DNA of 16,912 nt from a virus: positions 1 through 16,912 of IMG/VR virus record IMGVR_UViG_3300035438_001155. One strand, given 5' to 3'. The position numbers and the translations under genes were made by a program. Shown here piece by piece: positions 347-10,726 of the stretch. The notes beneath the pieces were generated by a model. The model searched no databases. It had not been told where the DNA came from and saw only the letters and a program-made list of their open reading frames with translations. Position 1 is the stretch's first letter; every line of letters begins with the position of its first letter.

Positions 347-484
347 GCCCGAATGGCGGAATCGGTAGACGCGACGGTCTCAGAGGCAAGGTATTTTGAT
401 ACCCTTGTTGGGTCACTCCCAATAGCCTAAACAAAAACCGTTTGTTGAAAGACAATGCCAGTTCAAATCTGGCTTCGGGCACCA
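347..484 (+). tRNA. tRNA-Leu (anticodon CAG) interrupted by a 51-nt insert at position 37/38 (insert 385-435); CCA encoded
   Basis: Acceptor gcccgaa (347-353) pairs 7/7 with ttcgggc (474-480). Discriminator A481 and CCA 482-484. Classical Leu D-arm gcgg-aatcggtaga-cgc with G18G19. Anticodon stem acggt (374-378) pairs with accgt (437-441). Loop c-t-CAG-a, then a 51-nt insert after nt 37. Long variable arm ttgt-tgaaag-acaa. T arm gccag-ttcaaat-ctggc. Total 135 nt versus about 85 expected. Confidence 0.85.
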
Positions 485-496
485 AAAATATACCAC

Positions 497-571
497 GGGG
501 GTGTAGTGTAATGGTTAGCACAAAAGATTTTGAATCTTTTAGTCCTCGTTCAAATCGAGGCACCCCTTCCA
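497..571 (+). tRNA. tRNA-Gln (anticodon TTG), CCA encoded
   Basis: Acceptor gggggtg pairs with cacccct (G1-U72 wobble). D stem gtgt/gcac with loop aatggtta. Anticodon stem aaaga/tcttt, loop tt-TTG-aa. T arm cctcg-ttcaaat-cgagg. Discriminator T568 and CCA 569-571. Confidence 0.85.
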
Positions 572-598
572 ATTCTTTGCAGTATTATGTTACTGTGA

Positions 599-1273
599 TC
601 ATTCATACAACTTCCGCAGGTCTCTTACTTTGTATGTTTCGCGAACATACTTGATGTAGACTTGTATGTCTATCTTATCCACTACCATAACATTGGGACA
701 TTGATCCTTTTTGGCTTGAGCTCTCTTGCTCATAAATCCCTTGATTTCAATTTCCACACCTTCCACTACAAAATCAGGACGATATTTGTGTTTTTTGTTC
801 TTGTAGGTGTAATCATACACAGAAGTTGATCTAGCAATCTCAATATTATGATCCAAATGCCAAATCACAAAGGCTAGTTCATATGTACTATCACAATGAA
901 ATCCTTTGTATTTGCCCTTGTGTCCTCCTCCATGTTTTTCTTGTTTGAGTGCATTTTCTGTTGCTCTTTGTTTGAAACAGATTCTCGAACAGGTAACTCT
1001 AGCTGCCGAGAATGATTTAGAACAAATGGGGCAAATCTTAATTATATCTTTTTTAGATCCAAATTTTTTTCCACGGTTGGGAGATGGCAATCCTTTATTG
1101 TGGCTAGGTCTTCCTTTCAATTTTGATTTAATTTTGTCTTTTACTTCTTGTGAATGTATTCTCGCATTGGCGCATTTTCTGCTACAGAATTTCTTGGCAC
1201 CATATTTGGAATAGGGATCAAAACTATTGCCACACTTGGGGCAGATAGAATAAATATCAGTTACGCTGGACAT
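599..1273 (-). CDS. free-standing homing-endonuclease-like protein: two zinc-ribbon repeats plus a C-terminal PD-(D/E)xK nuclease motif
   Basis: ATG at 1273 (reverse complement) preceded by AAAGGAAG. Two repeats of the type CPxCGxxF…CSRxC. C-terminal region …GFHCDSTYELAFVIWHLDHNIEIARS…YRPDFVVEGVEIEIKG, with PD…E-x-K. Confidence 0.7.
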   Translation of the reverse strand: MSSVTDIYSICPKCGNSFDPYSKYGAKKFCSRKCANARIHSQEVKDKIKSKLKGRPSHNKGLPSPNRGKKFGSKKDIIKICPICSKSFSAARVTCSRICFKQRATENALKQEKHGGGHKGKYKGFHCDSTYELAFVIWHLDHNIEIARSTSVYDYTYKNKKHKYRPDFVVEGVEIEIKGFMSKRAQAKKDQCPNVMVVDKIDIQVYIKYVRETYKVRDLRKLYE

Positions 1274-1340
1274 GATCTTCCTTTCTTGTCTAGAGCGGAT
1301 GGATGTTGGCGCATCGTGATCCGTACCTATATTTATACAG

Positions 1341-1369
1341 TTGACTAAACTATGATACTATATTACTAT
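1341..1369 (+). promoter_or_regulatory. sigma70-type promoter for the second tRNA-Leu, divergent from the minus-strand nuclease gene
   Basis: TTGACT (1341-1346), 17-nt spacer, TACTAT (1364-1369). tRNA starts at 1386. Confidence 0.6.
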
Positions 1370-1385
1370 GAAGATAGTAGAGTTT

Positions 1386-1525
1386 GCCCCCGTGTCGGAA
1401 TCGGTAGACGACGCGGACTTAGGGACAAGAGCAACAGGTGCTCATATCAGTTCAATCCTGATAGTCCAACAGAAATCCGCTGGCCTGGAAAGGCTGTGCC
1501 CGTTCAAATCGGGCCGGGGGCACCA
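1386..1525 (+). tRNA. tRNA-Leu (anticodon TAG) interrupted by a 51-nt insert at 37/38 (insert 1424-1474); CCA encoded
   Basis: Acceptor gcccccg pairs 7/7 with cgggggc (1515-1521). A1522 and CCA 1523-1525. D arm tcg-gaatcggtaga-cga. Anticodon stem gcgga (1413-1417) pairs with tccgc (1476-1480). Loop c-t-TAG-g, then a 51-nt insert. Variable arm gcct-ggaa-aggc. T arm gcccg-ttcaaat-cgggc. Confidence 0.85.
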
Positions 1526-9644: not shown

Positions 9645-9671
9645 CAAGCAGATCCAATACTACTTGGGAAT

Positions 9672-9713
9672 GGCCGGAGAAGGAAACTTCTCCGGCCTTT
9701 TCTTTCTCTATTT
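9672..9713 (+). terminator. strong intrinsic terminator after the MVP gene
   Basis: Perfect 11-bp stem ggccggagaag (9672-9682) with cttctccggcc (9687-9697), GAAA loop, then TTTTCTTTCTCTATTT. Confidence 0.85.
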
Positions 9714-9964
9714 GATTACAATTGTCCCTTATGTAAGGGTACCTTGGATATTATCTTCCAGGGAGATTTATTCAGATAAATCATGCCACTAGAGAATCCT
9801 TGGGATACACACCACTGTCTCAAATTACAGGTTTCCACCTGCTCTTGAGTAATTGAATTCTGTAACACAAATGTCATACGAGATCTAGGAATGCCTTTCT
9901 GATAGGGTTTAGATCTATCTGCGGCTCTTCTCTTAACCCCTTGAGATATTTTTTGGCGAGTTTC

Positions 9965-10453
9965 TTATGAACATTCCCAATCACCCCTAGCCAAAAGGCG
10001 CGTGTGTTTCTGATCCTCGCTCATAGATTTGCCTTTATTATGTGCCCCGCCTTTTGCTGCTATTCCCTCTTTTACTTTCTGAATATGCTCTGGAGAAAGT
10101 TTCTTGCCTTTGTTATGTACCTTCATTGCCTCGCTCATGCCAGTTTTGATATTTTGATATTGCCGAGAAGACATTCGGAACCTGTCTCGTTTCTTATTAT
10201 CTTGTGTCATCCGCCACAAGGCAAAGGCCATTTTTCTTGCATTGACCCCAAAGGTCATTTTGGTAAGTAATAAATGTGCTACAAAATGTTCTTTGCCAGT
10301 AAGTCTAACAAGATTATCTTTTGCATCATTGCCCCCTAGGCTCTTGGGAATAATATGATGTTTTTCAGTATAGACAGATCTATCTAAATTTCTAGTTTGA
10401 GCATTACTAACCAATGAGATATACCAAGAGGTATATTTGTTATTGATAAACAT
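9965..10453 (-). CDS. HNH homing endonuclease with C-terminal NUMOD-like repeats (free-standing, mob-like)
   Basis: In-frame ATGs at 10537 and 10453; the latter has GGAG 9 nt upstream. HNH core YTEKHHIIPKSLGGNDAKDNLVRLTGKEHFVAHLLL. C-terminal repeats GKKLSPEHIQKVKEGIAAKGG and GKSMSEDQKHTRLLA. Confidence 0.85.
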   Translation of the reverse strand: MFINNKYTSWYISLVSNAQTRNLDRSVYTEKHHIIPKSLGGNDAKDNLVRLTGKEHFVAHLLLTKMTFGVNARKMAFALWRMTQDNKKRDRFRMSSRQYQNIKTGMSEAMKVHNKGKKLSPEHIQKVKEGIAAKGGAHNKGKSMSEDQKHTRLLARGDWECS

Positions 10454-10545
10454 AGGAATCTCCAAGTAAATATATGTGTGGGACAGCCTGGGGCTCCAAG
10501 CCGGGTTTCCTGTTGTTCGTAGCAACAGGATTACCATCTTTATTT

Positions 10546-10588
10546 ATATATTATGTGTTGACAAACCCATATCTAGCACATAATATAT
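10546..10588 (+). promoter_or_regulatory. sigma70 promoter TTGACA-N17-TAATAT bracketed by a perfect 12-bp inverted repeat (candidate operator)
   Basis: TTGACA 10558-10563, TAATAT 10581-10586. Inverted repeat atatattatgtg (10546-10557) with cacataatatat (10577-10588). Confidence 0.55.
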
Positions 10589-10601
10589 GAACAGTTGGTA
10601 A

Positions 10602-10726
10602 GGGCCTCTATCATAATTGGTGAATGAACTCGCCTCGGGGGATGTAGGTTACACAATGAGGTTCAACTCCTCAATCCCCAAACTATAAGCGAGCATATCT
10701 CCGTTCGAACCGGAGGGGGCCTACCA
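10602..10726 (+). tRNA. tRNA-Pro-like (anticodon CGG) interrupted by a 48-nt insert at 37/38 (insert 10640-10687); CCA encoded; acceptor stem has two G-U pairs
   Basis: Acceptor gggcctc (10602-10608) pairs with ggggcct (10716-10722): 5 Watson-Crick plus 2 G-U. A10723 and CCA 10724-10726. D arm tcat-aattggtga-atga. Anticodon stem ctcgc (10629-10633) pairs with gcgag (10689-10693). Loop c-t-CGG-g, then a 48-nt insert. Variable catat. T arm ctccg-ttcgaac-cggag. Confidence 0.6.

Follow-up and report, generated by a model that had tools for sequence, protein, structure and literature searches.

Short tRNA-like inserts within the anticodons of tRNA genes in a freshwater jumbo phage: candidate mobile mini-introns

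INTRODUCTION

Bacteria and their viruses are not known to remove tRNA introns by any means other than large self-splicing ribozymes, of group I and, rarely, of group II. Here, we analyze a 16,912-nucleotide (nt) stretch of viral DNA, IMG/VR record IMGVR_UViG_3300035438_001155 from position 1 to 16,912 (hereafter the window), in which three tRNA genes are interrupted within the anticodon loop by inserts of about 50 nt that fold like the upper half of a tRNA.

Several described systems come close to these inserts. Bacterial group I introns occur in the anticodon loops of tRNA-Leu(UAA), tRNA-fMet, tRNA-Ile(CAU), and tRNA-Arg. For the bulge-helix-bulge (BHB) tRNA introns of archaea and eukarya, whose canonical position is 37/38, the EndA/Sen endonuclease makes the cuts and RtcB or Trl1 seals the exons. 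tRNA-like elements that act as processing signals, including those of the mitochondrial tRNA punctuation model, could guide cutting beside them by RNase P and by nucleases of the 3' end. Phage T4 provides two further cases: gene 60 harbors a 50-nt insert, in a protein-coding gene, that is bypassed by the ribosome, and in T4 tRNA repair the anticodon-loop cut made by PrrC is healed by Pnkp and sealed by Rnl1.

The inserts share features with each of these systems and depart from all of them. Like BHB introns, they are short, noncoding, located in a tRNA anticodon loop, and presumably removed by protein and then ligated; unlike BHB introns, they occur with a bacterial host, lie inside the anticodon (34/35 or 35/36), carry a T-arm mimic, and have junctions fixed to the intron's own helix that shift by one nt relative to the anticodon stem. 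With bacterial group I introns they share the domain of life, the kinds of tRNA (Leu-UAA, CAU, and Arg), the same or neighboring anticodon sites, mobility, and an association with homing endonucleases, but they measure 46 to 62 nt against at least ~200 nt and are without the P3-P8 core. tRNA-like processing signals (MALAT1 mascRNA, plant mitochondrial t-elements, and viral tRNA-like structures) likewise place an acceptor/T-arm-like module in a longer RNA; those signals mark RNA ends whose flanks are not rejoined, whereas an insert sits in a tRNA whose flanks need ligation. The T4 mobE/gene 60 cassette is similar in its ~50 nt, its position beside a free-standing homing endonuclease, and its presence/absence polymorphism in close relatives; here, however, the insert is in a tRNA and must be removed from RNA. 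T4 tRNA repair resembles the last step proposed below, in that phage enzymes rejoin a tRNA broken in its anticodon loop, although T4 mends host-inflicted damage and has no intron to remove. The clade loci that we examined, which cover ~20 kb each of genomes of 170 to 460 kb, showed neither a Pnkp nor an Rnl gene. Literature searches returned no description of such introns, the paper PMC7886860 dealing with group I introns in protein-coding genes, and the inserts appear to be an undescribed class of tRNA intron.

RESULTS

Three interrupted tRNA genes and the fold of their inserts

With introns allowed, ARAGORN reported three interrupted tRNAs in the window, at 347-484, 1386-1525, and 10602-10726. 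Default ARAGORN recovers two of the five window tRNAs and Rfam three of the five, and the second interrupted gene escapes both. The interrupted genes and the parts of their inserts, together with a TilS-type gene, are as follows.

347 to 484, + strand: interrupted tRNA-Leu(CAA), loop CUCAAAA once 383-433 is removed (intron-permitting ARAGORN)
383 to 433, + strand: mini-intron 1, 51 nt; G, closing stem AGGC/GCCU (384-387 with 425-428), hairpin 1, hairpin 2, tail AAACA (429-433)
390 to 403, + strand: hairpin ggtat-tttg-atacc, from the minimum free energy fold, not T-like
406 to 424, + strand: hairpin 2 of mini-intron 1, UGUUGGG-UCACU-CCCAAUA, with a 5-nt loop and no T-loop, abutting the closing stem
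1386 to 1525, + strand: interrupted tRNA-Leu(UAA), loop CUUAAAA once 1422-1472 is removed (intron-permitting ARAGORN)
1422 to 1472, + strand: mini-intron 2, 51 nt, family 1; G, closing stem GGAC/GUCC (1423-1426 with 1464-1467), AA, hairpin 1, A, T-arm-like hairpin, tail AACAG (1468-1472)
1429 to 1443, + strand: D-arm-like hairpin 1 of mini-intron 2, GAGCA-ACAGG-UGCUC, its loop ending in an invariant GG
1445 to 1463, + strand: T-arm-like hairpin UAUCAG-UUCAAUC-CUGAUA, with a G-C closing pair and the UUCAA T-loop consensus
10602 to 10726, + strand: interrupted CAU tRNA (Met or lysidine-modified Ile2), loop CUCAUAA once 10637-10684 is removed
10637 to 10684, + strand: mini-intron 3, 48 nt, family 2; G, closing stem GGGGAU/AUCCCC (10638-10643 with 10674-10679), GUAGGUUACACAA, T-arm-like hairpin, tail AAACU (10680-10684)
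10646 to 10649, + strand: invariant AGGU of family 2 (alignment columns A10 G11 G12 T13)
10657 to 10673, + strand: T-arm-like hairpin UGAGG-UUCAACU-CCUCA, found by fold, covariation, and hairpin scan
6512 to 7114, + strand: TilS-type PP-loop ATPase gene (Pfam ATP_bind_3, E = 1.7e-30), syntenic across the whole clade

Each window insert, folded alone or within the full pre-tRNA, forms a closing stem and two hairpins followed by an unpaired 8- to 9-nt tail, with fold z-scores of -2.3 to -3.4, and the cloverleaf is kept in the full pre-tRNA fold. The three hairpins (390-403, 1445-1463, and 10657-10673) that an earlier note on this DNA had drawn from its sequence are present. That note's insert coordinates (385-435, 1424-1474, and 10640-10687) were displaced by 2 to 3 nt, and its names for the genes (Leu-CAG, Leu-TAG, and Pro-CGG) assumed an intron at 37/38 and are contradicted by uninterrupted homologues, which give Leu-CAA, Leu-UAA, and CAU. 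In agreement with the revised names, tRNA calls on the spliced forms returned tRNA-Leu(caa) for the first gene and tRNA-Leu(taa) for the second. The Rfam tRNA match at 347-481 (44.8 bits) places a 53-nt insertion in the anticodon loop. The revised names also fit codon usage, with UUG making up 35% of Leu codons and AGA 25% of Arg codons, and CCG only 4% of Pro codons.

The window CAU tRNA is homologous to the interrupted CAU tRNA of a related contig (L101) and to uninterrupted CAU tRNAs. It plausibly is an AUA-reading tRNA-Ile2, because the phage encodes the TilS-type enzyme listed above; judged by its family, the product, if a lysidine synthetase, would convert a CAU tRNA into AUA-reading tRNA-Ile2. 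C4-G69 and C5-G68, which we take to be TilS determinants, are present in this tRNA.

Homologous inserts in related phages and their compensatory changes

Relatives were reached through homologues of the homospermidine synthase encoded in the window, which yielded contigs of related jumbo phages of 44 to 462 kb. Five of these (L012, L095, L098, L101, and L176) contain 11 further inserts, for a total of 14 with the window, ranging from 46 to 62 nt; at each relative locus, 3/5 to 3/7 of the tRNA genes are interrupted.

L012 13741-13871: interrupted tRNA
L095 1753-1875: interrupted tRNA
L098 1073-1210, 1691-1817, and 3325-3453: interrupted tRNAs
L101 6309-6444, 6460-6593, and 13512-13636: interrupted tRNAs
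L176 (L107 is the same phage) 2900-3047, 3155-3282, and 5186-5310: interrupted tRNAs

Six copies form family 1 and occupy Leu-CAA, Leu-UAA, and class-I UAA tRNAs. Their consensus is N-GGNC-AA-GAGCA-nnnGG-UGCUC-A-UAUCAG-UUCAAUC-CUGAUA-GNCC-AAnnn, in which the strands of the three-way junction are only 0 to 2 nt long. Family 2 comprises five copies in CAU and Arg tRNAs, laid out as N, a 6- to 7-bp stem, nnAGGUnnnnnnn, a 4- to 5-bp stem, UUCRAYU, the two returning strands, and a 5-nt tail. Three inserts fall outside both families, among them mini-intron 1 and L098_Met. Mini-intron 2 scores 78.3 bits with the family-1 covariance model (R2) and mini-intron 3 scores 58.5 bits with the family-2 model (R1), while mini-intron 1 gives a weak full-length match to family 1 (20.4 bits).

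Every cell of the family-2 alignment is paired (100%), and both partners have changed in 8 of its 11 pairs; the covariation score was reached by 0 of 500 shuffles, and a one-column shift of the partners makes the pairing collapse. Pairing in family 1 amounts to 97.7%, with one closing-stem pair appearing as A-U, U-A, and C-G and one compensatory pair in hairpin 1 (C-G to U-A); its invariant GG corresponds to alignment columns G16 and G17. This compensatory evolution supports the predicted insert fold. The earlier note had looked to relatives for a test of its hairpins, and in both families they are kept with compensatory changes. The 390-403 hairpin is without comparative support, as only near-identical copies of mini-intron 1 were found.

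The distribution of the inserts is narrow. Across 304 kb of related sequence, the covariance models of both families detected copies solely in tRNA anticodon loops and added no new ones. More distant phages bearing homospermidine synthase (L170-L175 and L178-L185) are without mini-introns of this type. A metagenome scan with a homospermidine synthase alignment returned, among the matches listed, almost only bacterial loci (L015-L094) with no mini-introns, the ARAGORN "introns" in those loci being false positives in GC-rich DNA. Scanning IMG/VR with the family-1 T-arm 19-mer retrieved mostly real tRNA T-arms, with true inserts only in L107, and neither an IMG/VR scan with a family-2 pattern (57 loci) nor a GTDB scan with a family-1 pattern (4 loci) returned a mini-intron. 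The 10 near-identical metagenome contigs, at 99.5 to 100% identity, are without useful variation. The whole window matched deposited phage genomes (megablast) only over 42 nt of tRNA-Arg, two of the pre-tRNAs gave no match there in distant-mode blastn, and both an IMG/VR scan for tRNA-Leu with a long gap and a homospermidine synthase search of IMG/VR came back empty.

Three observations concern unusual tRNAs of these phages. Long variable arms in bacteria belong to Leu, Ser, and Tyr tRNAs, so a CAU anticodon on a class II shape is unusual; such tRNAs occur at L095 1655-1738, L176 10054-10141, and L012 13741-13871. A class-I (short-arm) tRNA with UAA, a Leu anticodon, on a body unlike tRNA-Leu is conserved among three phages, being uninterrupted at L170 9025-9101 and interrupted at L098 1691-1817 and L176 3155-3282. 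Finally, in a megaphage represented by contigs L170 and L171 (423 to 485 kb), a tRNA at 670-836, perhaps Phe-GAA with a GUUUC/GAAAU closing stem, carries a different, 90-nt anticodon-loop insert that does not follow the junction rule described below; among the products of this locus are three candidates for the processing of RNA ends, namely a Thg1-like enzyme, an AAA_33 kinase, and a HAD phosphatase.

Junctions inside the anticodon, at fixed offsets from the closing stem

In an unbiased search for closing stems, exactly 13 nt, split 5 + 8 (as in mini-intron 1) or 4 + 9, separated the closing stem from the anticodon stem for 13 of the 14 inserts. As a mature anticodon loop takes 7 of these, six nt must belong to the intron. 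In the exception, L176_Arg, the closing stem is one C-G pair longer, with intron nt 1 paired to tail nt 1; hence, intron nt 1 faces tail nt 1. A single rule, which assigns to the insert 1 nt ahead of its closing stem and 5 nt behind it (the 1/5 rule), restores a 7-nt anticodon loop in 14 of 14 cases. The resulting loops are CUCAAAA, CUUAAAA, CUCAUAA, and CUUCUAA, each confirmed by an uninterrupted homologue: the spliced L095 tRNA-Arg is identical to the uninterrupted L098 gene (3468-3542) at 75 of 75 positions, the uninterrupted class-I tRNA at L170 9025-9101 has the loop CUUAAAA, L170 9112-9194 is an uninterrupted Leu-CAA, and the uninterrupted long-arm tRNAs at L095 1655-1738 and L176 10054-10141 have the loop CUCAUAA.

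Insertion thus falls after nt 34 or 35 (34/35 or 35/36), inside the anticodon, leaving 3 + 4 or 4 + 3 loop nt as exon flanks. The predicted exon-exon junctions of the window tRNAs are GGTCTCAAAAACCGT, GGACTTAAAATCCGC, and CGCCTCATAAGCGAG, and the predicted junction-spanning sequences, with a slash at the junction, are GGTCTCA/AAAACCGT, GGACTTA/AAATCCGC, and CGCCTC/ATAAGCGAG. The exons of the interrupted tRNAs keep perfect cloverleaves. Bases at the junctions are not conserved, the last exon base being A, C, or U and the last intron base A, G, U, or C. The boundaries are set by the intron's own fold, and an intron excised at them would resemble a mature tRNA in its ends, flush at the 5' side and with 4 nt protruding at the 3' side.

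Other placements were rejected. Junction offsets of (0,6) and (2,4) give anticodons that clash with the uninterrupted homologues, e.g., UGA on a Leu body or UCC and UCG for the Arg pair. Placement at 37/38 fails on the L095/L098 Arg pair, which sets the insert in CUUC/UAA; 37/38 would yield UCG and not the UCU of the uninterrupted allele.

Resemblance of the inserts to a tRNA elbow

A UUCRANN loop closed by a G-C pair is present in 12 of 14 inserts, on stems of 4 to 6 bp; in the window, these loops are UUCAAUC (1451-1457) and UUCAACU (10662-10668). Scanning the 16.9-kb window for hairpins with this closing pair and loop on at least 4 bp returned six, namely four true T-arms and the two insert hairpins, where 0.19 was expected from Markov-random sequence, so that the T-arm-like insert hairpins are not due to chance. 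The pattern GTTCRANYC likewise occurs nine times in the window against 1.5 expected. The earlier description of two of its hairpins as T-arm-like is therefore borne out, down to a G53-C61-type pair and a U54-U55-C56-R57-A58-type loop, while the third, at 390-403, is not T-like. In other phages, the family-1 T-arm 19-mer serves tRNA-His, -Gly, and -Thr as their genuine T-arm, and because of this identity descent of the inserts from tRNA is plausible, though what the sequences offer is a resemblance only.

The likeness extends beyond the loop. Only 0 to 2 nt separate the T-arm-like hairpin from the 3' strand of the closing stem, and, measured outward from the loop with the position of intron nt 1 and tail nt 1 included, the helical run amounts to 11 nt in seven inserts and 12 nt in the other seven; the acceptor/T-arm stack of a tRNA comprises 12 bp. 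A GG upstream of the T-arm-like hairpin is invariant in both families and could be a T-loop partner, in the manner of G18-G19 of the D-loop. A reasonable reading is that the insert mimics a tRNA elbow and may be able to recruit tRNA-recognizing enzymes. A pseudoknot between the tail and the loop of hairpin 1, searched for by eye, was inconsistent across copies and was discarded.

Directly 3' of the tRNA-Arg gene of the window, 3195-3250 reads as a minihelix-like CCCUG-A-CAGAGG-UUGGAAU-CCUGC-CAGGG-GCGCCA. This segment resembles an acceptor stem plus a degenerate T-arm with a CCA end and might represent either a truncated tRNA or an insert relative that stands free; shuffled versions fold as well as it does (z = -0.16), and the insert covariance models do not match it.

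Comparison with described introns and ribozymes

BHB introns, group I introns, and the small ribozymes were each compared with the inserts and rejected. No bulge-helix-bulge can be drawn, since at most 2 bp form between the anticodon loop and the intron tail in the fold of 1386-1525, and the flanking exon nt vary (3 + 4 or 4 + 3) while the intron geometry stays constant. No EndA/Sen-family splicing endonuclease was found among the genes called in the clade loci, a fraction of each genome. A group I intron would require a U at the exon end and a terminal G, neither of which is a feature of the inserts, and no Rfam intron matches. For small self-cleaving ribozymes (hammerhead, twister, pistol, hatchet, hairpin, and HDV-like), Rfam 15 gave no match up to E = 10, and no Rfam family at all matched the isolated inserts at that threshold.

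Mobility and neighboring homing endonuclease genes

A free-standing homing endonuclease gene adjoins every interrupted tRNA, with representatives of the HNH (phrog_655 and phrog_1271), GIY-YIG (phrog_314), and DUF559 types. The window contains three.

599 to 1273, - strand: free-standing HNH-type homing endonuclease gene (phrog_1271, E = 6e-9), adjoining tRNA-Leu(CAA) and tRNA-Gln
2145 to 2987, - strand: free-standing GIY-YIG/NUMOD3 homing endonuclease gene (Pfam GIY-YIG and NUMOD3; phrog_314, E = 2e-47), in the tRNA region
9965 to 10537, - strand: free-standing HNH homing endonuclease gene (phrog_655, E = 1e-42), 65 nt upstream of the interrupted CAU tRNA

A phrog_655 match in L012 (12837-13601, E = 5e-44) lies on the opposite strand just upstream of the CAU tRNA, as in the window, and further homing endonuclease genes were located at L101 12707-13366, L176 4197-5060, L095 1882-2745, and L098 3601-4272. 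PDB sequence searches with two endonuclease-like open reading frames (ORFs) were uninformative.

Insert-plus and insert-minus alleles occur side by side. In L095 and L098, flanks that are 97% identical surround a tRNA-Arg with and without the insert, respectively, and the tRNA/endonuclease regions of these two phages are mosaic within those surroundings. The uninterrupted tRNA-Arg(UCU) of the window is the empty-site counterpart of the interrupted L176 tRNA-Arg, with exons 86% identical, and further plus/minus pairs are formed by L170 with L098 and L176. Between phages, orthologous tRNAs differ in whether the insert follows position 34 or 35. Because one family occurs in different tRNAs and at different positions, and because plus and minus alleles exist in 97%-identical phages, the data support that the inserts are mobile, and the adjacent endonuclease genes suggest spread by collaborative homing. 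Of the earlier idea that tRNA pieces had moved into other tRNAs, the mobility is supported; the tRNA origin stays a resemblance rather than a demonstrated descent.

Genomic context

The window derives from an uncultured freshwater jumbo phage, a bacterial virus; its sigma-70 promoters and TilS-type enzyme, together with flanking genes for peptidoglycan hydrolases, indicate a bacterial host, and archaeal or eukaryal splicing machinery is therefore not expected. The genome has a GC content of 46%. Besides the genes listed above, the window encodes a tail-spike-like protein and the following features.

268 to 296, + strand: sigma-70-like promoter TTGACA-17-TATATT, 11/12 matches, 5' of the first interrupted tRNA
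497 to 571, + strand: uninterrupted tRNA-Gln(UUG), 12 nt 3' of the first interrupted tRNA (default ARAGORN and Rfam)
1341 to 1369, + strand: sigma-70-like promoter TTGACT-17-TACTAT, 9/12 matches, 5' of the second interrupted tRNA
3117 to 3194, + strand: uninterrupted tRNA-Arg(UCU) (default ARAGORN)
3873 to 5276: homospermidine synthase gene, syntenic across the whole clade
7074 to 9644: gene for a protein with a major-vault-protein shoulder domain
10558 to 10586, + strand: sigma-70-like promoter TTGACA-17-TAATAT, by sequence reading, 5' of the third interrupted tRNA
12184 to 12651: gene for a PTH2-type peptidyl-tRNA hydrolase

Every interrupted tRNA gene of the window is thus preceded by its own promoter-like site. 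The auxiliary set of homospermidine synthase, TilS-type, vault-shoulder, and PTH2 genes is an uncommon combination for a phage. For the ORF 3' of the second interrupted tRNA, a homologue search retrieved only itself.

Several other features of the region deserve mention. A near-consensus promoter (1999-2027, TTGACA-17-TATAGT) is followed ~100 nt on by a strong terminator-like hairpin with a T-run (2127-2153), with a GC-rich hairpin in between; this possible small RNA gene (1999-2165) overlaps the 3' end of the opposite-strand GIY-YIG gene. A GC-rich stretch at 3600-3720, the 3' end of ORF 3282-3734 (cagcctggccaatcgccgaccgatcggcgccctgctgccggagtgggtgcgggag), is present in all near-identical contigs and may be a captured foreign fragment. 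The otherwise 99.9%-identical contigs L001-L004 align to the window only from position 22 onward, so that positions 1-21 reflect either a strain difference or an assembly boundary. A conserved tRNA with a CUA anticodon, of the amber suppressor type, is found in related contigs (L012 18182-18256, L098 14580-14655, L101 15972-16046, L176 11902-11977, and L181 9583-9657) and is absent from the window itself; the closest relative, L011, encodes a release-factor-1-like protein (4141-4845). This tRNA and the release-factor-1-like protein together suggest UAG recoding or a manipulation of termination in the clade.

DISCUSSION

Taking together the fold and its conservation, the junction rule, the insert-plus and insert-minus alleles, and the endonuclease neighborhood, we favor the reading that the inserts are mobile, tRNA-mimicking mini-introns removed by structure-guided enzymes and followed by ligation, to which we assign a probability of roughly one half. 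According to this proposal, the intron would adopt the shape of a tRNA without its anticodon arm, with an acceptor-like closing stem, a D-arm-like GG hairpin or segment, and a stacked T-arm-like hairpin. Enzymes reading this fold would cut the pre-tRNA at both junctions; the exon ends, held by the tRNA body, would then be joined by an RNA ligase into a 7-nt anticodon loop. The introns may travel with the adjacent homing endonuclease genes, and an insert in the anticodon region would shield the gene from their cutting. Recognition by a protein or ribonucleoprotein (RNP) is likelier than self-catalysis because the junction nt are unconserved and the invariant bases are those of a tRNA elbow.

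As to the enzymes, an acceptor-like helix and a T-arm mimic, the elements of an RNase P/RNase Z signal, are present at the inferred cut site. RNase P would be the likeliest enzyme at the 5' junction, which sits where it would cut a minihelix if intron nt 1 and tail nt 1 count as pair 1-72. In a specific pathway that we put forward tentatively and consider rather doubtful as it stands, the intron would be a miniature tRNA freed by the enzymes of tRNA end maturation: a 3'-end nuclease would cut where the CCA end would lie, and the anticodon loop, opened by this nuclease and RNase P, would bear a 3'-OH and a 5'-phosphate for an Rnl-type ligase to seal.

That the inserts are removed from RNA is inferred, since exon remainders of exactly 7 nt, cloverleaves that stay intact, and so many interrupted tRNA genes would otherwise be hard to explain. 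A number of points weigh against enzymatic removal guided by tRNA mimicry. The 14 inserts represent about three to four families from one phage clade, so that the independent observations are fewer than 14. The T-loop is absent in 2 of 14 introns, mini-intron 1 (UCACU, 413-417) and L098_Met (CAAAU), both with 5-nt loops, and hence is not strictly required; given helical runs of either 11 or 12 nt, the junctions track the helix end and not a constant spacing to the T-loop. A 3' junction 4 nt past the helix, on a tail that is not CCA, suits no obvious known nuclease, as RNase Z would be expected to cut just after the discriminator. Lastly, no RNA ligase, RtcB, kinase/phosphatase pair, or splicing endonuclease domain was found among the genes called in the ~20-kb loci.

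Some of the same observations would suit a dedicated phage splicing endonuclease that reads the Y-shaped intron and makes both cuts, with a phage or host ligase of the RtcB or Rnl type sealing the exons; the tRNA likeness would then be inherited from the origin of the element and not used for recognition. A single intron-reading enzyme would account for junction offsets that are fixed to the intron helix at any position in the anticodon loop and that hold equally for the two T-loop-less introns, and there are many genes of unknown function around the tRNA clusters, such as the phrog_23051 homologues in L095 and L098, that could encode it. Yet the loci examined offer no candidate with an EndA/Sen-type, RtcB, or RNA-ligase domain, and the strict G-C/UUCRANN, GG, and 11- to 12-nt stack in 12 of 14 inserts would be left unexplained; we regard this enzyme as an unlikely alternative.

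It is less probable still that the inserts stay in the RNA, the interrupted genes giving disabled tRNAs or an RNA with a nontranslational role (a decoy for tRNA-targeting defenses or a regulator) and the insert serving mainly, like that of T4 gene 60, to protect the DNA from neighboring homing endonucleases. The endonuclease gene beside every interrupted tRNA and the mosaic tRNA/endonuclease regions of the 97%-identical phages agree with such a role; a protective function is, however, compatible with excised mini-introns and not opposed to them. Inserts that are never removed would hardly leave exactly 7 exon nt in 14 of 14 cases, with sensible anticodons that are identical to those of uninterrupted homologues and read codons in use (UUG, AGA), nor would they be expected to go with perfect exon cloverleaves across 65 to 86% divergence. 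With 3/5 to 3/7 of the tRNA genes per locus interrupted, much of the tRNA set would be lost.

We consider it very improbable that the insert is a very small self-splicing or self-cleaving RNA whose compact tRNA-like fold joins both junctions, although the intron defines its own boundaries, its fold is strongly conserved, and self-splicing is the only means by which, to our knowledge, bacteria remove tRNA introns. At 46 to 62 nt, the inserts are far below the size of any known self-splicing intron; their junction nt are unconserved, invariance being limited to tRNA-elbow bases, and Rfam recognizes no ribozyme at E = 10. Chance or an assembly artifact, for which only the small size of the hairpins speaks, is refuted by the same sequence in at least 10 independent assemblies at 99.5 to 100% identity, by homologous inserts with compensatory changes in five other contigs, and by six T-arm-type hairpins against 0.19 expected.

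A ~50-nt tRNA-like intron inside the anticodon that is not of group I implies an unknown splicing pathway in a bacterial host. Because tRNA finders that permit introns assume position 37/38, they assign wrong anticodons to such genes (CAG, TAG, and CGG for CAA, TAA, and CAT), and missed or misnamed tRNAs distort the tRNA inventories of jumbo phages and arguments from codon usage, including those on stop-codon-recoded phages. The link to homing endonucleases provides a new example of selfish DNA colonizing tRNA genes, and a compact, self-delimiting excision module could serve RNA engineering. If the proposed removal by RNase P, a 3' nuclease, and a ligase is true, the inserts would count as the first tRNA introns in the bacterial world that a protein or RNP splices, tRNA splicing would gain a third route, and the freed mini-tRNA might act as a stable small RNA, for instance as a decoy for tRNA-sensing defenses.

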